Assembly: GCA_963756155.1 (NCBI GenBank)
Contig: CAVWMQ010000010.1
Location: 95,672 to 159,671 of the forward strand
Origin: an uncultured delta proteobacterium
Lineage (GTDB): Bacteria > Desulfobacterota > Binatia > Binatales > Binataceae
Direction: 5' to 3'
DNA: 64,000 nt
Position numbers and translations under genes: made by a program. Below, in pieces: positions 25,828 to 34,978 of the stretch (position 1 is the first letter of the stretch; each line of letters begins with the position of its first letter). Below the pieces are notes generated by a model. It saw only the letters and a program-made list of their open reading frames with translations. It did not search any database and had not been told where the DNA came from.

Positions 25828-28538
25828 ATGCCGGAGCCCCGTTTGGAACTCGCCAAAACATACGACCCCAAAGCCGCGGAACAACGATGGTTCCAGCTCT
25901 GGATCGATCTCGGCTACTTCAAAGCCGATCCCGCGCGCCAGGGCGCCCGCCGCGACGCGCACGGCAATGACTACTTCTCGATCGTCATTCCGCCGCCCAA
26001 CGTCACCGGACAGCTTCATCTCGGCCACGCGCTCAATCACACCCTGCAGGACATCATCGTGCGCACGCGCCGGATGCAGGGCTTCAACACCCTGTGGCTG
26101 CCCGGGAATGGATCACGCCGGCATCGCGACCCAGAACGTGGTCGAAAAGCAGATCGCCAAGGACGGCAAAAACCGCCATCAGCTCGGCCGCGATCTGTTC
26201 GTGCGCCGGGTATGGGAATGGAAAGAAACCTACGGCGGCAAAATCCTCGAGCAGGATCGCCGCCTCGGCGCGTCACTGGACTGGAGCCGCGAGCGCTTCA
26301 CCCTCGATGCCGGCCTCTCGCGCGCGGTGAGCAAGGTCTTCGTCGACCTGTACCGCAAGGGACTCATCTATCGCGACCGCCGGCTGATCAACTGGTGCCC
26401 GCGATGCGAGACGGCGCTCTCCGATCTGGAAGTCGAGCACAAGGACGCGCAGGGGCATCTCTATTACATCCGCTATCCCTTCAGCGACGGCAGCGGCACG
26501 ATAACCCTGGCGACCACGCGGCCCGAGACGATGCTGGGTGATACGGCGGTGGCCGTTCATCCTGACGACAAGCGCTACGCCGCGATCGTGGGCAAGAAGA
26601 TCCGGCTCCCGCTGATCGGCCGCGAAATTCCGATCATCGCGGATGCCGCCGTCGATCCCAACTTCGGCACCGGCGCGGTGAAGATCACGCCCGCGCACGA
26701 CTTCAACGACTTCGAAATCGGCCGGCGCCATCAGCTCGAACAGATCAGCGTGATGGACACGCGCGCGCACATGAACGAGAACGCCGGGCCGTACCGCGGG
26801 CTCGATCGCGAGGAATGCCGCCGCAGAATCATCGACGATTTGAAGAGCGCCGGGCTGCTCGAAAAAATCGAACCGCATCAGCTCGCGGTCGGCACCTGCT
26901 CGCGATGCGACACGGTGGTCGAGCCGATGATCTCCGAGCAATGGTTCATGCGCGTCAAGGAGATGGCGGAGCGCGCGATGCAGGCGGTGCGCGACGGCCG
27001 CACCAACTTCCATCCCAAGTTCTGGGAGAACACGTTTTTCAACTGGCTGGAAAATATCCACGACTGGTGCATCTCGCGCCAGCTATGGTGGGGGCATCGC
27101 ATTCCGGCCTATCGATGCCAGCGATGCGAGCATCTGATGGTCGCCGAAGAGCGCCCGCCGAAATGCGAGGAGTGCGGCGGCACCGACCTGGTTCAGGACG
27201 AAGACGTGCTCGACACCTGGTTCAGCTCCGGGCTGTGGCCGTTCTCGACGCTCGGATGGCCCGACGACACGCCGGAGCTGCGCCGCTACTACCCGACCAG
27301 CCTGCTGGTAACCGCGCACGACATAATTTTTTTCTGGGTTGCGCGGATGATGATGCTCGGGCTCGAGTTCATGAACGACGTGCCGTTCCGCGACGTTCTG
27401 ATCACTGCGCTGGTGCGCGACGAGTACGGCAAGAAGATGACCAAGTCGAAGGGCAACGTGGTCGACCCTATCGATTTGATGGAGCAGTACGGCACCGACG
27501 CGTGCCGCCTCACCTTCGCGCAGTTATCGGCCCAAGGCCGTGAAGTGATTCTCTCGCACGATCGTTTCGCGGCCTCGCGCGCGTTCGCAAATAAAATCTG
27601 GAACGCCGCGCGCTTCGTGATGATGAATCTCGAAGGCGCGCCCGAACCGCTGGCGCCGGTCGCGACCGCGAAGCTCGGGCATGGCCGAGCGATGGATCCT
27701 GAGCCGGCTCGACGCGGCGATCGAGGAAGTGAGCGGCGCTATCGATCGCTTCGAGTTCAACGTGGCGGCGATGGCGATTTACCAGTTTATCTGGCACGAA
27801 TTCTGTGACTGGTATATCGAACTGTCCAAGGAGCCGCTGAAGGCCGGCGGCGAGCGCCGCGACGCGGCGCGCTACGTGCTGGTCACCGTCTTCGACCGGA
27901 TGTTGCGCCTGCTGCATCCGTTCATGCCGTTCATCTCCGAGGAAATCTGGCAGGTGCTTCACCCGTACCTGAGCGAAGCGGACGGATCCGCGCTGAGTCC
28001 GCACTTGGTGATTGCGAAATGGCCCGAGCGCGCGCCCGCCAATCCGCTCAGCCAGGCGGAAGCGGCCGCGATGGGGCACTGTATCGAGGTGACAGAGGCG
28101 ATCAACTCGCTGCGCTCGCTGCTCGGATGGCATCCCGGCCAACGCGCCCGCGCCAAGATCAAATTCCTCGATTCGGTCGAAAGCACCGAGCTGGAAAGCT
28201 GGCGATTTTATTGCGACACGCTGGCCAAAAGCGAAATCGAACCGCTCACCAGTGAGTTCGATGATCATAAGTGGGTTGCGCTGGACCTGGGATGGGGCAA
28301 AGTGTGGGTGCAAGCCCCGGAAAATTTCGACGTGACCAAAACCCGCAACTCGTTCGCCAAAAAGCTCGCCGAGGTCCAGGCTCATCTCACGCGTCACGAG
28401 GCCCGAATCAAGGATGCGGGTTTTTTTGAGCGGGCCAGCCAGGAAGCGAAGGACGAAACGTTGAAGCGAATCGAGGATCTCAAGTCTGAGGAAAAGACCC
28501 TGAAGGGACAATTGCAGCAACTGGAAAGCGTCGGTTGA
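25828..28538 (+). pseudogene. valS: valine--tRNA ligase, interrupted by two +1 frameshifts as assembled (probably intact in vivo)
   Basis: Three consecutive ORFs (25825..26541, 25967..27808, 27681..28538) join into one ValRS: HIGH region PPPNVTGQLHLGHAL, ..TLWLPG|MDHAGIATQ.. (break near 26101-26108), KMSKS region KMTKSKGN, ..AKLG|(M)AERWILSRL.. (break near 27676-27681), and a C-terminal coiled coil. Confidence 0.9.
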
Positions 28539-28542
28539 TGAG

Positions 28543-29403
28543 ATGGAACTGCTTCATCAGATCGATCTCACTGACCTGCTGAGACGCGCGCTTGTCGAGG
28601 ATCTCGGGCAGGGCGACGTCACCACCGCCGCCACCGTAAATTCCGGACAGCGCGGACGCGCCAAAATCACGGTCAAGGAACCGCGCATGATTCTGTGCGG
28701 CGGCCCGATTCTCGTGCAGGTGTTCGCGCTCGCCGGCGCGGGCCCCAACCTTACTTTTCTCGCGCCGGAAAGCGTCGAGCTCAAGGCGGGCGATCGGATC
28801 GCGCAAATCGACGGGACGCTGGCCGGGATGCTGATCGGCGAGCGCGTCGCGCTCAATTTCGTGCAGCTCCTGTCGGGCATCGCGACGCTGACGCGCAAAT
28901 ACGTCGACGCCGTCGCGGGCACTGGCGCGAAAATAATCGACACCCGCAAAACCCATCCGGGTCTGCGCGCGATCGAGAAATACGCGGTGCGCGCGGGCGG
29001 CGGCTTCAACCATCGCTTCGGCCTCGATAGCGGCATCCTGATCAAGGACAACCACATCGCGGCGGCCGGCTCGGTCAAAGAGGCGATCGAGCGCACGCGC
29101 CGGCTCGCTCCGCATTCGCTGCGCGTCGAGGTCGAATGCGAGACGCTCGCGCAGGTCAGCGAGGCGCTCGAGGCGCGCGCGGACGCGATCCTGCTCGACA
29201 ACATGGCGCTCGCCGACCTGCGTCGCGCGCGCGAGATGACGCGCGAGACGGGACACGGCAAAGTGATGCTCGAGGCGTCGGGGGGAGTGACGCTCGAGAC
29301 TGTGCGCGCGATTGCCGAGACGGGAGTCGACGTGATTTCAATAGGCGCGCTCACGCATTCGGCGCCTGCAGTAGACATCAGCATGAGGATTGAAGCAGTC
29401 TGA
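28543..29403 (+). CDS. nadC: nicotinate-nucleotide diphosphorylase (carboxylating) / quinolinate phosphoribosyltransferase
   Basis: 286 aa. NadC-typical stretches are present: LVEDLGQGDVTT, ERVALNFVQLLSGIAT, DTRKTHPGLR, ILLDNM. Confidence 0.93.
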   Translation: MELLHQIDLTDLLRRALVEDLGQGDVTTAATVNSGQRGRAKITVKEPRMILCGGPILVQVFALAGAGPNLTFLAPESVELKAGDRIAQIDGTLAGMLIGERVALNFVQLLSGIATLTRKYVDAVAGTGAKIIDTRKTHPGLRAIEKYAVRAGGGFNHRFGLDSGILIKDNHIAAAGSVKEAIERTRRLAPHSLRVEVECETLAQVSEALEARADAILLDNMALADLRRAREMTRETGHGKVMLEASGGVTLETVRAIAETGVDVISIGALTHSAPAVDISMRIEAV

Positions 29404-29439
29404 ATCGCAACCGGCGCCCGTCCGCACCTCAGCCGTTCA

Positions 29440-30240
29440 ATGAATTCGCCTTACCAATCGATTGAGCGTGGAGAGTCAGGCCGCGGTCACGTGGGCTGGC
29501 GGATCCATTACTTCGAGGAAACCGACTCGACCCAGGCGATCGCGCGCGAACTTGCCGCCCAGGGCGCGGCCGAGGGCACCGTCGTCATCGCGGAGCAGCA
29601 GACCGCCGGGCGTGGCAGGATGGGCCGATCGTGGCATTCGCCGCCCGGTGTCAACCTCTATATGACGATAATCCTGCGTCCGAGGTTGACACTCGGCGAG
29701 GTGCCGCGGCTCAGTTTGGTCGCGGGAGTCGCGGCGGCCGAGGCGATCGAGCCGATCGCGCCGGGGATGGTTTCGCTCAAATGGCCCAATGATATATGGC
29801 TTCGCGGCAGGAAGGCCGGCGGGATGATAGCGGAGGCGGTGACCGATTCGAGCCAGAGGCTAACGTCGGTACTCTTGGGCATAGGCATCAATGTCAACCT
29901 GGTCGCCCTCGACATCCCGGAGGACCTCCGCCCCAAAGCGACCTCGATCCGAATCGCGACGGGGCGGCCATGCGATCGAATTGCGCTGGCCGACGCACTT
30001 TTTAATCTGCTCGACACTCGCTATATGGAGACGCAGGCGATGGGCTTCGCGGCGGTCCGCCCGCATTGGGAGCGCTACTCGGCGCTCACCGGCAAGCGGG
30101 TCGCGATCGTCGACGCGGGCCGCCGCGAGACTGGCGTCGTCAAGGGAATCGACGCCGACGGCGCGCTACTGCTCGATACCGGCGCTGCGCTGGTGCGAAT
30201 CGTCGCCGGCGATGTTACGATCGAAGGTGCTTACGATTAA
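29440..30240 (+). CDS. birA: biotin--[acetyl-CoA-carboxylase] ligase (group I, no N-terminal HTH)
   Basis: It has the GRGRMGRSWHSPPG biotin-binding loop and the KWPNDI motif. Confidence 0.9.
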   Translation: MNSPYQSIERGESGRGHVGWRIHYFEETDSTQAIARELAAQGAAEGTVVIAEQQTAGRGRMGRSWHSPPGVNLYMTIILRPRLTLGEVPRLSLVAGVAAAEAIEPIAPGMVSLKWPNDIWLRGRKAGGMIAEAVTDSSQRLTSVLLGIGINVNLVALDIPEDLRPKATSIRIATGRPCDRIALADALFNLLDTRYMETQAMGFAAVRPHWERYSALTGKRVAIVDAGRRETGVVKGIDADGALLLDTGAALVRIVAGDVTIEGAYD

Positions 30241-30337
30241 TTTGTAACGATCAAGTAACCGGTAGATAAATCGCTTCGCCGCAGGCGTCGCGCTCCGGAC
30301 TCGGCCTCGCGCGCGAAGCGCCAGAGAGGTAGCAGCT

Positions 30338-32440
30338 ATGGCTGTCGAGGAAATCGGGCGGCTCAGGACCATCGCGATCGTCGGCCAGGGCGGCACCGGC
30401 AAGACCCAGCTCGCCGAGGCGATGCTGTTCACCGCCGGTGCGATCAACCGCCTCGGCCGTCCCGACGACGGCAGCGCGGTGATGGACTTCGAACCGGAGG
30501 AACTCCATCGCCACGTTTCGATCAGCTCCACGTTTCATCATCTTAACTGGAAAAAGACCGAAGTCATCCTGGCCAACACGCCCGGCTACGGCGCGTTCCT
30601 GCCCGATACCGTCGCGACTCTGCGCGCGGTCGACGGCGTGGTGCTGCTGATCAGTCCCGGCAATGACACCAAGGTCGAGTCGGAAAAAATCTGGGAGGCG
30701 ATTTCCGAGCTCGGCCTCCCGCGCATCGCTTTCGTCTCGCGACTGGATCGCGAGCGCGCGAGTTTCGACAACGCGCTCAGGGACCTCGAGAAGACGCTCG
30801 GTGCGAAGCCGGTCGTGATGACGCTGCCGATCGGCGAGGAGCTCGGCTTTCGCGGCGTGGTCGACGTGCTCGCGATGAAAGCGCTCGTGTACGGCGACAC
30901 CTCGGGCAGGCCCAAGGAAGAGGAACTCAGTGGCGAACTCAAGACGCGCGTGGAGGCGGCCCGCAATGCGCTGTTCGAGACGGTCGCCGAGTCCGACGAC
31001 GCGCTGCTCGAGAAATATCTCGACCAGGGATCGCTCGAGGAAGAGGAAGTGCGCACCGCGCTCCACGCCGGCGTCCGGGCGGGCACGCTGACTCCCGTGT
31101 TCTGCGGCTCGGGCACCAAGAATATCGGCGTCGGCCCGCTGCTCGATGCGATTAACGTGCTGATGCCAGCGCCCAACGAGCGCCCCGCCGTAAAGGGGCA
31201 GCACTCCTCGACCGGCGAGCCGGTCGAGCGCGCCGCCGATCCCGGCGCGCCATTCGCGGCACTGGTATTCAAATCAGTGATCGATCCGTTCGCCGGCAAG
31301 CTTTCGATCTTTCGCGTGGTCTCCGGCAAGGCGCTCAGCGATGCGACGGTTTACAACGCCGCCCGCGAGTCACGCGAGCACTTCGGTCAGTTGCTGCGCC
31401 TGGAAGGCAAGAAGCAGGCGCCCCTTGCCATCGCGCTCCCCGGTGAGATCGTCGCGGTCGCCAAGCTCAAGGACACCACCACCGGCGACACGCTATGCGA
31501 CGAGAAAGCTCCCCTGCTGTTGGCGCCGATCCCGCGGCCGACGCCGGTTATCTCGTTCGCTATTCGCCCCAAGACCAAGAGCGACGAGGAGAAGTCCTCG
31601 GCCGCGATGCACAAGCTGCTCGAGGAGGATATCGCGCTCGAGATGCATCGCGATCCCCAGACCCACGAAATCATCCTGTCGGGCACCGGCCAGATGCATA
31701 TCGAGGCGACCGTCGAGAAGCTCAAACGTAAATTTAATGTAGAGGTTGAACTTCAGTCGCCCAAGGTCCCCTACAAGGAAACCCTCAAAGGACGCGCGGA
31801 AGCGCAGGGAAAGTATAAGCGCCAGTCGGGCGGCCGCGGGCAGTACGGCGACTGCTGGCTCAAGGTCGAGCCGCAACCGCGCGGCAAGGGTTTCGAGTTC
31901 GTCGACGAAATCGTCGGCGGCGTGATTCCGCGCAACTTCATTCCGTCGGTGGAAAAGGGCGTGCGCAGCACACTCAACGAAGGCTTTCTCGCCGGATTTC
32001 CGGTGGTCGATATCAAGGTGACGGTCTTCGACGGCAGCTATCACGACGTCGACTCCTCGGATATGGCGTTTCAGATCGCCGCTTCGATGGGACTCAAGGC
32101 CGCGTTCGAAAAAGCCCGCCCGATCATCCTTGAGCCAATTCTGGAACTCGCCGTAGCCTGTCCCGACGAATGCATGGGCGAGGTGATCGGCGACCTCAAT
32201 GCGCGCCGCGGCAAAGTCCTGGGAATGGATCGCAAGGGCCAGAGCCAGGTCATCAAGGCACGGGTGCCGATGTCGGAAGTGCTCAAGTACGCGCCCGACC
32301 TGCGCTCCATCACCTCGGGACGCGGATCGTTCGAGCAGCATTTCTCGCACTACGAGGAGGCCCCTCCGCAGATCGCCGAAAAGATCATCAAGGAGACTCA
32401 TGCCGCGCGCGAGGCCGCCAAGGAACGCGCCCACGCCTAA
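30338..32440 (+). CDS. elongation factor G-like protein (divergent paralog with non-canonical G motifs)
   Basis: 700 aa with full five-domain EF-G colinearity. However, G1 reads GQGGTGKT, DTPGH reads NTPGY, and NKxD reads SRLD. Confidence 0.9.
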   Translation: MAVEEIGRLRTIAIVGQGGTGKTQLAEAMLFTAGAINRLGRPDDGSAVMDFEPEELHRHVSISSTFHHLNWKKTEVILANTPGYGAFLPDTVATLRAVDGVVLLISPGNDTKVESEKIWEAISELGLPRIAFVSRLDRERASFDNALRDLEKTLGAKPVVMTLPIGEELGFRGVVDVLAMKALVYGDTSGRPKEEELSGELKTRVEAARNALFETVAESDDALLEKYLDQGSLEEEEVRTALHAGVRAGTLTPVFCGSGTKNIGVGPLLDAINVLMPAPNERPAVKGQHSSTGEPVERAADPGAPFAALVFKSVIDPFAGKLSIFRVVSGKALSDATVYNAARESREHFGQLLRLEGKKQAPLAIALPGEIVAVAKLKDTTTGDTLCDEKAPLLLAPIPRPTPVISFAIRPKTKSDEEKSSAAMHKLLEEDIALEMHRDPQTHEIILSGTGQMHIEATVEKLKRKFNVEVELQSPKVPYKETLKGRAEAQGKYKRQSGGRGQYGDCWLKVEPQPRGKGFEFVDEIVGGVIPRNFIPSVEKGVRSTLNEGFLAGFPVVDIKVTVFDGSYHDVDSSDMAFQIAASMGLKAAFEKARPIILEPILELAVACPDECMGEVIGDLNARRGKVLGMDRKGQSQVIKARVPMSEVLKYAPDLRSITSGRGSFEQHFSHYEEAPPQIAEKIIKETHAAREAAKERAHA

Positions 32441-32522
32441 GGCCCTTGCGAGCAGCGGCCCAATCCCCCGCCCGGACGGGTATTGCTGATGCGCGCAGTC
32501 GGATAGACTCTCTCCGAGGCTT

Positions 32523-32744
32523 ATGCCGCCGCTCGGAAAAGGACTGATCGTCGTCGGGCTCATCCTGGTCGTGGCGGGAGTCGCGGTATGGGTGTTGCCG
32601 TCGATTCCTTATGCGGGCCGGCTAGGGCGGCTGCCCGGTGACATCTACATCAAGCGGGACAACTTCACGCTTTACTTTCCACTCACCACCGGAATCCTGA
32701 TTAGCGTCGTACTCACAATCCTGTTGTCGCTGATGAGGCGATGA
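32523..32744 (+). CDS. DUF2905 family small membrane protein
   Basis: 73 aa with two hydrophobic helices and the central GRLPGDIYIKRDNFTLYFP motif. Its stop codon overlaps the next gene's start (ATGA). Confidence 0.75.
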   Translation: MPPLGKGLIVVGLILVVAGVAVWVLPSIPYAGRLGRLPGDIYIKRDNFTLYFPLTTGILISVVLTILLSLMRR

Positions 32745-34978
32745 CGGTGGCCGATGAGACGAAGCTGAGCACGCATCGGCTCGCGGAGCGCAAGCGGCGC
32801 CGCCGCGAGCTGATCGCCGTCGGCATCGCGGCCGCGACGCTGGTCGCCTTCGTGCTGGCGCAGACCGAGCTTCCGCCGCTGACCCGGCATACGTCGCTGG
32901 TCTCCAACCTCGCGGTCATCACGCTCTTCAATTTGAGCTTCCTGCTCCTGGGCCTGTTGCTGTTCCTGGTCGGGCGCAATCTCGCCAAGGTCATCTTCGA
33001 GCGCCGCCGCGGACTCATCGGCTCCAAGTTCCAGGTCAGGCTGGTGGCCGGCTTTATCGCCGTGGCGCTGGTACCGAGCGCTTTCCTGCTCTATGTGTCC
33101 GGCGTTTTTCTGCACGCTGATATCGGTAGCTGGTTCAATCCCGAGTACGAGCAGGTGCTCGACGACTCGCTCGAGATCGCAAAGACTTATTACCTGAACT
33201 CCGCGAACAACGCGTCGCACTTCGCGCGCGTACTGGCTGAGGAGGTCGCCAAGCACGACCTGCTCTCGACCGCCAAGCGCCCCGCGCTCCGCGATTACAT
33301 CGAGAAGCGCCAGCAGGAGTACAACCTCGGCACCATCGAGGTGTTCTCCAAGGATCGCAAGCTGCTGCTGCTTGCGCTGAGCCCCAAGACTCCGACCGGG
33401 GTCGGCGTGTCGCCCGACTCAACGCTGATTTCCGAAACGCTGAAAGGGCAGGCGATGACGCGCACTGATCGCCTCTCGCGTTCCGACGTGGTGCGCGGCT
33501 CCGCGCCGATTTATTCCTCGACCGATTCCGACCAGGTGCTGGGCGCGGTGGTGGTCGACTACTTTCTGCCCACCAGCCTCGCCACTCGCGCGACCGACAT
33601 CTCGCGCACCTCGGAGGACTACTTCCAGCTGCGCATCCTGCGCCAGCCGATTCTCAACAGCTATCTGCTGGCCCTGGTGCTGATCGGCCTGGTGGTAGTG
33701 ACGCTCTCTAGCTGGTTCGGGATGTACCTAGCGCGCGGAATCACCGGGCCGATCAAACTACTCGCGCAGGGCACCGAGGCGATCGCCGCGGGAAATCTGA
33801 ACTACCAGATTCCCGAGGTCGGCGACGACGAACTCGGCCGGCTGGTCGATTCGTTCAACCAGATGACCACCGACCTGCGCGTCTCCGGCGCCGAGCTCGA
33901 GCGCCGCCGCCGCTACACCGAGACGCTGCTCCGCAACGTGTCGGCCGGCGTCGTCGGGCTGGACGCGCAAGGGCACGTGACGGCGATAAATCCCTGCGCG
34001 GAGCGGTTGCTGGGGATGGCCGCCGCCGACCTGGTCGGGCGCAACTATGCGTTTGCGTTTCCGCCCGCGCTGGCCCGTGTACTGGAGGATATCTTTGCCT
34101 CCCCGACGCGCCCGCGCGAGGTGCGCGCGACCATCAAGCTGGACTCCAACAGCAACGGCGACAGCGAGCTGATGATGACCGCGAGCCCGCTGGCCGAAGG
34201 CGCCGACGAACCCGGCGGAATGGTGCTGTTCTTTGAAGACGTTAGCCAGATCGCCAAGGTCGAGCGGATGGAAGCGTGGCGCGAGGTGGCGCGCCGCATC
34301 GCGCACGAAATAAAAAATCCGCTCACTCCGATCCAGCTCTCCGCCGAGCGCCTGCGCCGCCAGCTTGGCGGCCGCGACGGCGGACCGTCAGCGCTGGTCG
34401 ACGAATGCACCCGCACCATCATCGGCGAGGTCGAAGATCTCAAACGCCTGGTGAACGAATTCTCCGGCTTCGCACGAATGCCGCATCTCAATCCGCTCCC
34501 CGGCGATCTCAACGCGCTGGCCGCCGAGACGGTCGCGAATTTCCGCGAGGCAAATCCCAACGTCGAGTTCTCGGTCGCGCTAGACCCGGCGCTGCCGCTC
34601 ATCGCGATCGATCGCGAGGCGGTGAAGCGCGCCCTGGTCAACCTGCTCGACAACGCGGTCGCAGCGACCACCACGTACAACGGCAATCGCAATGGCGACC
34701 GGCCGCGAATCGAGCTTCGCACCACACTCAAACCGGATAAGGTGGTGCTCGAGATCGCGGACAACGGACCTGGGATCGAGCCGCGGCTTCGCACCCGCGT
34801 TTTCGAGCCGTACTTTTCCAGCAAGAAGGGCGGCACCGGACTCGGCCTCGCGATCGTCTCCGCGATCATCTCGGATCATCGCGGCTTCGTCCGTGTCGAC
34901 GACAACCAGCCGCACGGAAGTAGATTCATCGTCGAGTTTCCGCTAAAAGAGCAGCAACTCGCCAAGGCAACGGGCTGA
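32741..34978 (+). CDS. ntrY: NtrY-like sensor histidine kinase (TM-HAMP-PAS-HisKA-HATPase)
   Basis: 745 aa. It has an N-terminal multi-TM region, a HAMP domain (GDDELGRLVDSFNQMTTDL), a PAS region, the H-box HEIKNPLTPIQLSAERL, the N box DNAVAA, and the G box GTGLGLAIV. Confidence 0.9.
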   Translation: MTVADETKLSTHRLAERKRRRRELIAVGIAAATLVAFVLAQTELPPLTRHTSLVSNLAVITLFNLSFLLLGLLLFLVGRNLAKVIFERRRGLIGSKFQVRLVAGFIAVALVPSAFLLYVSGVFLHADIGSWFNPEYEQVLDDSLEIAKTYYLNSANNASHFARVLAEEVAKHDLLSTAKRPALRDYIEKRQQEYNLGTIEVFSKDRKLLLLALSPKTPTGVGVSPDSTLISETLKGQAMTRTDRLSRSDVVRGSAPIYSSTDSDQVLGAVVVDYFLPTSLATRATDISRTSEDYFQLRILRQPILNSYLLALVLIGLVVVTLSSWFGMYLARGITGPIKLLAQGTEAIAAGNLNYQIPEVGDDELGRLVDSFNQMTTDLRVSGAELERRRRYTETLLRNVSAGVVGLDAQGHVTAINPCAERLLGMAAADLVGRNYAFAFPPALARVLEDIFASPTRPREVRATIKLDSNSNGDSELMMTASPLAEGADEPGGMVLFFEDVSQIAKVERMEAWREVARRIAHEIKNPLTPIQLSAERLRRQLGGRDGGPSALVDECTRTIIGEVEDLKRLVNEFSGFARMPHLNPLPGDLNALAAETVANFREANPNVEFSVALDPALPLIAIDREAVKRALVNLLDNAVAATTTYNGNRNGDRPRIELRTTLKPDKVVLEIADNGPGIEPRLRTRVFEPYFSSKKGGTGLGLAIVSAIISDHRGFVRVDDNQPHGSRFIVEFPLKEQQLAKATG

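Follow-up and report, generated by a model that had tools for sequence, protein, structure and literature searches.

An EF-G paralogue downstream of birA

The DNA analysed here (the window) is a stretch of 64,000 nucleotides from contig CAVWMQ010000010.1 of GenBank assembly GCA_963756155.1. It belongs to an uncultured member of the Binataceae in the phylum Binatota, as judged from the names on near-identical proteins; the Binatota were once binned with the Deltaproteobacteria. Reading of the open reading frames (ORFs) and their translations reveals an uninterrupted frame of 700 codons at positions 30338-32440 of the forward strand, which encodes a paralogue of translation elongation factor G (EF-G) and, very probably, a member of subfamily EFG II. 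At this locus the gene order is nadC, birA, the EFG II gene, a 73-amino-acid ORF, a kinase of the NtrY type and a REC-LpxC fusion. The features relevant to the analysis, all on the forward strand, are as follows.

29440..30240, +, birA (biotin-protein ligase), the upstream neighbour, identified by Pfam
30324..30329, +, Shine-Dalgarno-like GAGAGG, 8 nt 5′ of the ATG, read directly from the sequence
30338..32440, +, predicted EFG II (EF-G2-type) paralogue of EF-G, 700 amino acids, from the open ORF, Pfam, NCBIfam NF009381 and an AlphaFold2 model
30383..30406, +, G1 or P-loop GQGGTGKT, residues 16-23, from the alignment to Thermus EF-G
30509..30523, +, G2 or switch I RHVSI, residues 58-62, from the same alignment
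30575..30598, +, G3 or switch II NTPGYGAF, residues 80-87, from the same alignment
30737..30748, +, G4 SRLD, residues 134-137, from the same alignment
31106..31123, +, G5 region GSGTKN, residues 257-262, from the motif tables
31808..31849, +, domain IV loop 1 GKYKRQSGGRGQYG, residues 491-504, at the decoding-centre tip, invariant across Binataceae orthologues
32030..32068, +, domain IV loop 2 DGSYHDVDSSDMA, residues 565-577, with the conserved tip residue His569, from the motif tables
32523..32744, +, 73-amino-acid membrane ORF, the downstream neighbour, conserved, DUF2905-like according to an earlier sequence-only reading of this DNA, followed by the NtrY-type kinase

The Pfam domains GTP_EFTU, EF-G_D2, EFG_III, EFG_IV and EFG_C span residues 8-682 of the product, and the full EF-G architecture is present, comprising the G domain with its G′ subdomain and domains II, III, IV and V. 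In a HMMER alignment, which also served for mapping of the motifs, the protein is colinear with Thermus thermophilus EF-G over residues 5-685 (615 bits). The sequence-only reading had described a 700-residue protein colinear with EF-G through all five domains, with recognizable blocks in domains IV and V and with birA upstream and DUF2905-like, NtrY and REC-LpxC genes downstream. The Pfam and HMMER results bear out the colinearity, the cited blocks occur in the translation, and the neighbours are as described. The N-terminus, MAVEEIGRLR, is kept in orthologues.

An AlphaFold2 model based on an alignment of 68 sequences has a mean predicted local distance difference test score (pLDDT) of 91.4 and a predicted template modelling score (pTM) of 0.83. 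Its best superposition is on the active-state, ribosome-bound EF-G of Escherichia coli (7n2v), with a template modelling score (TM) of 0.94 and a root-mean-square deviation of 1.9 Å, and it reaches TM 0.84 with 9k0z and 0.74 with 1wdt, two solved EFG II proteins. The fold of the window protein, as modelled, is that of a complete EF-G.

A second EF-G is encoded on contig 1 of the same genome (G000), in the order rpoC-rpsL-rpsG-fusA-tuf. Its product is 40% identical to the window protein and has the canonical motifs AHIDAGKT, RGITI, DTPGHVDF and NKMD. Because a canonical fusA thus resides in the str operon elsewhere, the window gene is an accessory paralogue outside that operon, as the earlier reading had supposed, and the possibility that it is the sole EF-G of the genome is ruled out.

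Assignment to EFG II and occurrence in the Binatia

Bacterial EF-Gs have been split into EFG I, spdEFG1, spdEFG2 and EFG II (Margus, Remm and Tenson, 2011; PMC3150367). In the same work, the type I diagnostic residues of EFG II are given, in 1WDT numbering, as Gly16, Leu25, Ser61, Thr291, Gly333 and Lys/Arg352. The window protein has the exact EFG II residues Gly16, Leu25, Ser61, Gly357, Lys376 and Lys494, the last three being equivalent to 1WDT positions 333, 352 and 471, where EFG I proteins have Ala at 16, Thr at 25, Thr at 61, Ala at 357 and Gly at 376. Lys494 lies in domain IV loop 1 and is an EFG II type II position (Margus et al., 2011; PMC3150367). Residue 313 is Ser, which is a conservative change from the Thr usual in EFG II (Ile in EFG I). 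The switch I sequence RHVSI fits the relaxation of the translational GTPase consensus RGITI to xxxSx, and a G2 variant RxxT/SI is listed for deltaproteobacterial EFG II (Margus et al., 2011; PMC3150367). EFG II proteins also have Gly where the P-loop Asp stands (Atkinson, 2015; PMC4342817), and the same replacement is found here.

To place the protein among its relatives, we took the best 150 matches from an exhaustive HMMER search over 1.84 billion representatives of 50%-identity clusters; about 140 of these 150 share the EFG II residues. A FastTree tree was built from 161 sequences, which did not include the named EFG II references 1wdt, 9k0z and 7uvp. The five canonical EFG I sequences group together in a clade of their own (support 100), and 14 Binatia sequences form a clade (support 99-100) that lies 14 nodes deep within the radiation of sequences lacking the catalytic His, with several of the branches on the path between them supported at 97-99. 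Phylogenetic placement, which the sequence-only reading had proposed as a check, accordingly sets the Binatia clade inside the radiation of EFG II, separate from EFG I. Given the diagnostic residues, the sharing of these residues by most of the representatives and the position in the tree, we assign the window protein to EFG II with high confidence.

The best NCBIfam model is NF009381 (PRK12740.1-5, elongation factor G subfamily), whose cut-off of 583 is passed with 907.4 bits. The EF-G2 equivalog NF009377 fails (592 bits against a cut-off of 890), as does the Bacteroidetes EF-G2 model NF058620 (506 bits against 1000), for which the alignment breaks past residue 516. The window protein is therefore no equivalog of either of these EF-G2 lineages. 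EFG II itself is an already described, widespread subfamily, and the protein is not a new kind of system. Three elements are new: that EFG II now reaches into the candidate phylum Binatota, a group of abundant uncultured soil bacteria; the SRLD sequence at G4; and the recurrent alternation of Asp and Asn at G3.

In a survey of 41 related genomes, G000 included, the EFG II paralogue occurs in nearly all members of the family, at 69-96% identity, and in most other families of the Binatia, at 48-57% identity. Most of these relatives have EFG I beside EFG II, the EFG I proteins being 39-44% identical to the query. One class-level genome that is 97% complete (G030) has EFG I only. Two genomes, G025 and G033, show EFG II alone, but their completeness is only 82-84%. 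In G023 (8 contigs), the canonical fusA at C4:93382-95173 (locus L071) is matched in several pieces that lie in different frames, a pattern suggestive of indel errors or of gene breakage, and the EFG II gene of that genome is intact. With the apparent cases being either incomplete or affected by a frame-fragmented fusA, genomes with EFG II only are not claimed. The class-level relative G032 carries, at C10:46672-48771, a third EF-G-like gene beside EFG I and EFG II, with 35% identity to the query and 427 bits.

Throughout the Binataceae the genes follow one another as nadC-birA-EFG II-small ORF-ntrY, and this synteny holds in 21 of 21 family-level loci with an upstream flank. This arrangement, in which the small ORF encodes a membrane protein, extends over 28543-34978 in the window and recurs at loci L017-L038. 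In some other families of the Binatia there is space for one further gene between birA and EFG II, with birA situated about 0.8 kb upstream. We see no functional link among nadC, birA, EFG II, the small ORF and ntrY. A scan of positions 28400-33000 for promoters and terminators gave nothing exceeding the shuffled expectation. The sequences listed as containing positions 29400-32800 are all DNA contigs from soil metagenomes, with no RNA among them, and they are uninformative about expression. Further upstream, valS (25967-28538) is split over at least two overlapping frames, with the catalytic core in ORF 25967-27808 and the anticodon-binding domain and C-terminal arm in ORF 27681-28538; this split may stem from a frameshift or from faulty assembly.

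Conservation and variation of the GTPase motifs

The computed alignment to Thermus EF-G reproduces every motif substitution that had been listed from the sequence. AHIDAGKT, RGITI, DTPGHVDF and NKMD become GQGGTGKT, RHVSI, NTPGYGAF and SRLD, and neither the Asp and His of G3 nor an N/TKxD at G4 is restored. All four signatures of canonical EFG I (the switch II His, AHIDAGKT, RGITI and NKxD) therefore deviate. The P-loop pattern GxxxxGK[ST] is unbroken, the AHIDAGKT residues His, Ile and Asp are all substituted, and Gly16 is the EFG II state, found in 113 of 148 aligned representatives. In switch I, Ser replaces the Mg-binding Thr, which is a hallmark of EFG II. Switch II has Asn80 in place of the Asp that coordinates Mg and water, and Tyr84 in place of the catalytic His. 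The guanine-specifying Asp137 of G4 is kept. The protein thus has NTPG and SRLD where DxPG at G3 and NKxD at G4 might have been expected, these being general GTPase features that do not discriminate between subfamilies.

We compared these motifs with those of three solved EFG II proteins, read off HMMER alignments.

Thermus EF-G-2 (1wdt): G1 GHAGSGKT, G2 HRTTV, G3 DAPGYGDF, G4 TKLD
Mycobacterium smegmatis EF-G2 (9k0z): G1 GPSGGGKT, G2 QQRSV, G3 DTPGYADF, G4 TKLD
Bacteroides-type chain (7uvp/8dmf): G1 GSSGSGKT, G2 YGYSV, G3 DCPGSDDF, G4 NQLD

All three lack the catalytic His, as do about 140 of the best 150 representatives, in which Tyr is the commonest replacement. Position 84 is Tyr in 65 of them, Phe in 33, Asp in 12 and His in 9, with other residues in the rest, and five or six of the nine His84 sequences are canonical EFG I. 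The first residue of G4 (position 134) is N in 120, S in 14 and T in 12 representatives, and the second (position 135) is K in 94, R in 22 and Q in 11. At G3, on the other hand, 148 of 148 aligned representatives have the Asp, and so do all seven class-level orthologues that come from other families of the Binatia. The A-to-G change in G1, the T-to-S change in G2, the His-to-Tyr change in G3 and the variation of N and K in G4 are, on this comparison, EFG II-wide traits. Specific to the clade are only the exact SRLD combination at G4 and the replacement of the G3 Asp by Asn, and the earlier impression that the motif losses are peculiar to this protein was overstated.

Among 145 distinct full-length Binatia sequences, which constitute our ortholog set, GK[ST] is present in 145, Tyr84 in 144, Asp137 in 143 and SRLD in 130. 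G2 is RH[IV]SI in most orthologues and RG[IV]TI in a minority of those from the Binataceae. The two tip loops of domain IV show practically no variation, and in alignment A2 the residues His569, Val571 and Asp572 do not vary. The lowest column entropy is found in domains III to V. Between genomes of the family, identity is 69-79% for EFG II where it is 79-87% for EFG I; the G domain diverges fastest (61-74% for EFG II versus 77-87% for EFG I), and domain IV of EFG II is conserved to the same degree as in EFG I. This pattern of sequence conservation is clearly that of a gene under purifying selection, with no decay. The deviant motifs are conserved among orthologues and not decaying, as the earlier reading had asked to be checked; the G3 Asn occurs in 70 of the 145 sequences.

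The remaining 75 sequences have Asp at position 80. The Asn codon in the window, AAC, is no sequencing slip, since Asn is likewise found in a genome of the same genus and in 70 distinct sequences from independent metagenomes. The tree needs seven changes between Asp and Asn at this position, of which at least six are forced by well-supported branches, and the nearest relatives of the query outside its genus have Asp80. A close orthologue with Asp80, P0003, is 85% identical. Judging from this distribution, the Asn80 state is real and recurrent and apparently near-neutral in the clade, and the repeated switching suggests a relaxed constraint on the ligand of the Mg-bound water. The near-canonical switch I sequences RGITI and RGVTI occur solely in Asn80 orthologues (19 sequences) and never with Asp80; this pairing may reflect shared ancestry or compensation within the Mg site. 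In EF-Tu, the change D80N weakens GTP binding and is not known to abolish hydrolysis; a literature search for EF-Tu D80N found no paper on it.

Candidate roles on the ribosome and relation to known factors

We propose that the window protein would serve as an accessory second EF-G alongside the canonical EF-G of the str operon. It is predicted to bind guanine nucleotide and the ribosomal A site as EF-G does. The residues that serve nucleotide binding (P-loop, Ser in switch I, Asp in G4) are intact and conserved, and the decoding-centre loops in domain IV are held as strictly as those of a functioning translocase. The elements with which canonical EF-G achieves ribosome-activated hydrolysis are lost or altered: the His of switch II is Tyr, both Ile and Asp of the P-loop are replaced, and the Asp of G3 is Asn in this genome. 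The canonical hydrolysis step, with the His positioned by the sarcin-ricin loop, would not be carried out. The protein would then promote slow translocation in a manner that is hydrolysis-independent or hydrolysis-poor. By analogy with Bacteroides EF-G2, its role might be that of an energy-saving alternative translocase under nutrient limitation. For Bacteroides EF-G2, GTP-independent translation and strong induction under carbon limitation are reported (Han et al., 2022, EMBO J, as cited in PMC10294740; PMC6989115). Taken as a whole, the reading of this protein as an EFG II orthologue that binds nucleotide and ribosome and acts as a slow, hydrolysis-poor translocase appears probable to us, and we lean somewhat less firmly towards the specific proposal that it is devoid of canonical ribosome-stimulated GTPase activity.

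Several points weigh against this reading. Thermus EF-G-2 shares the Tyr at the catalytic position and is nevertheless reported to have intrinsic and ribosome-dependent GTPase activity and to support translocation, and for this reason the sequence by itself is unable to settle the matter of hydrolysis. The suggestion made from the sequence that the GTPase chemistry is altered is upheld in its broad form, but loss of the His is in itself no proof of a lost GTPase. Asn may still hold the Mg-bound water, and Asn80 need not abolish binding of nucleotide or Mg. Over its whole length the protein scores higher with canonical Thermus EF-G (615 bits) than with any solved EFG II protein (414-463 bits), and scores for the G-domain core are near equal (98 bits versus 83-92 bits). 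The EF-G model TIGR00484 is also passed, narrowly (685.6 against a cut-off of 659.4), which accounts for the plain annotation of orthologues as 'elongation factor G', a label that hides two functionally different EF-Gs in the Binatia. Finally, the functions of characterized EFG II proteins diverge, with a translocase in Bacteroides and a ribosome brake in Mycobacterium, and to move either role onto the Binataceae by analogy is an extrapolation.

One alternative is a ribosome brake. The EF-G2 of M. smegmatis, which has the same Tyr-for-His switch II (Tyr98, a residue already discussed structurally) and a TKLD-type G4, has no ribosome-dependent GTPase activity. It is described as trapping the post-translocated ribosome, and its ribosome-bound structure is the 9k0z on which our model superposes. 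A protein of this type would trap post-translocation ribosomes under stress and slow synthesis, without useful translocation or recycling. The window protein, however, is just 36% identical to M. smegmatis EF-G2, and the domain IV loops of the latter are reported to be shifted from the tRNA, whereas those of the window protein are canonical and invariant in the family, which indicates a preserved contact with the decoding centre. We consider a brake possible but doubtful, and because the domain IV tip is so conserved, a slow alternative translocase is more likely than a pure brake as judged from these sequences. It is unlikely that the protein is a competent ribosome-dependent GTPase and ordinary second translocase that achieves catalysis without the switch II His. 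Such an enzyme has a precedent in the activities reported for Thermus EF-G-2 (GHAGSGKT/DAPGYGDF/TKLD), and the window protein keeps an intact P-loop, a Ser in switch I and the Asp in G4, all of them conserved. Yet the window protein additionally carries Asn in place of the G3 Asp, a residue that is invariant elsewhere in the subfamily and toggles in this clade. Moreover, H88Y alone nearly abolishes the GTPase of a canonical EF-G, the EF-G1 of M. smegmatis, and two of the three characterized EFG II proteins are GTPase-dead.

Other accounts are far less probable. In spirochaetes and mitochondria, EF-G paralogues are known to divide the work between them, and spd-type EF-Gs occur in the Deltaproteobacteria, the former bin of the Binatota, so that a recycling-specific factor like Borrelia EF-G2 (spdEFG2) or mitochondrial EF-G2, which splits post-termination ribosomes with ribosome recycling factor, might be entertained. 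This is highly improbable, because recycling-specific mtEF-G2 retains well-conserved motifs G1-G5 together with the catalytic His, which the window protein does not, and because the window protein has the diagnostic residues of EFG II and not those of the spd type. The EFG I of the str operon is, in addition, fully canonical and able to do both jobs, and M. smegmatis EF-G2, itself an EFG II, is unable to recycle. A ribosomal protection protein like Tet(M) or Tet(O), conferring antibiotic resistance, would belong to the same EF2 superfamily, and Bacteroides-type EFG II chains have been labelled TetQ by their depositors. This placement, one of those the sequence-only reading had listed for comparison, is ruled out by the NCBIfam tet_protect model, which scores 290.8 bits where 775 are required; the loops of domain IV likewise resemble those of EF-G, and the G′ subdomain and overall colinearity match EF-G. 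The idea of a decaying, GTPase-dead duplicate or an assembly artefact could draw on the G domain being the fastest-evolving part of the protein and on at least one near-complete class-level genome (G030, above) without the gene. It is effectively refuted by the intact 700-codon frame, the 145 full-length orthologues, the conserved motifs, synteny and domain IV, and the confident AlphaFold2 model.

A bolder extension of the slow-translocase proposal is that the Binataceae EFG II has dispensed altogether with Mg-dependent GTP hydrolysis. The DxxG Asp, invariant in the EFG II and EFG I proteins sampled elsewhere, switches between Asp and Asn at least six times in this clade, with no change in the P-loop, in the Asp that specifies guanine or in the loops of the decoding centre. 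These observations make it a candidate that we put forward tentatively, regarding it as somewhat less probable than its converse. If it were true, the clade would be a natural mutational series, and EFG II function would need GTP binding and ribosome contact but not hydrolysis. In any event, the alternation of Asp and Asn at G3 offers a natural comparison for the dependence of EFG II on Mg-coordinated hydrolysis. Assignment to EFG II also connects the gene with the notion that factors of the EF-G2 type sustain slow translation at low cost when energy is scarce, a plausible setting for oligotrophic life in soil.

In its general features the protein resembles the EFG II subfamily as described (PMC3150367, PMC4342817), being a second EF-G beside the str-operon copy, with five domains and a G′ subdomain, a G domain that evolves fastest and a conserved domain IV. 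It differs in that Margus et al. (2011; PMC3150367), who did not sample the Binatota, report conservation of DxPG at G3 and NKxD at G4, whereas G3 starts with Asn in about half of the Binataceae orthologues and G4 is SRLD. In addition, the G1 His is Gln throughout the Binatia class and Ser313 replaces Thr.

Among characterized members, the EF-G2 of Bacteroides thetaiotaomicron (fusA2, BT2167) is likewise EFG II-type; its G3 (DCPGS) has no catalytic His, and its G4 (NQLD) is degenerate. It is non-essential beside the canonical EF-G (PMC10294740, PMC6989115), and it provides a working model for hydrolysis-independent slow translocation under carbon limitation. The Bacteroidetes proteins differ from ours in G2 (YGYSV versus RHVSI), and the match is broken at the Bacteroidetes domain IV region. 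A stretch of 26 residues specific to EF-G2 is also reported for the Bacteroides protein. The chains 7uvp and 8dmf, of length 718, are deposited as 'Tetracycline resistance protein TetQ'. Their motifs and length match Bacteroidetes EFG II (YGYSV variant; Margus et al., 2011; PMC3150367) and not Tet, and from these sequence features they are probably structures of B. thetaiotaomicron EF-G2.

The M. smegmatis EF-G2 (MSMEG_6535; 9k0z/9k10) is similar in the Tyr of DTPGYADF, in a G4 of the form [ST][KR]LD, in its Gly-rich P-loop and in its coexistence with a canonical EF-G1. It is dissimilar in its overall sequence (about 36% identity), in G2 (QQRSV), in keeping the G3 Asp and in the reported displacement of its domain IV loops. 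Thermus thermophilus EF-G-2 (TTHA1498; 1wdt/2dy1; Connell et al., 2007) has in common with the window protein a Tyr-Gly switch II, a related G4 (TKLD versus SRLD) and a P-loop that begins with Gly. It departs from the window protein in retaining Asp at G3 and His at G1, in the GTPase and translocase activities reported for it, and in its length of 665 amino acids, which is shorter by 35 residues.

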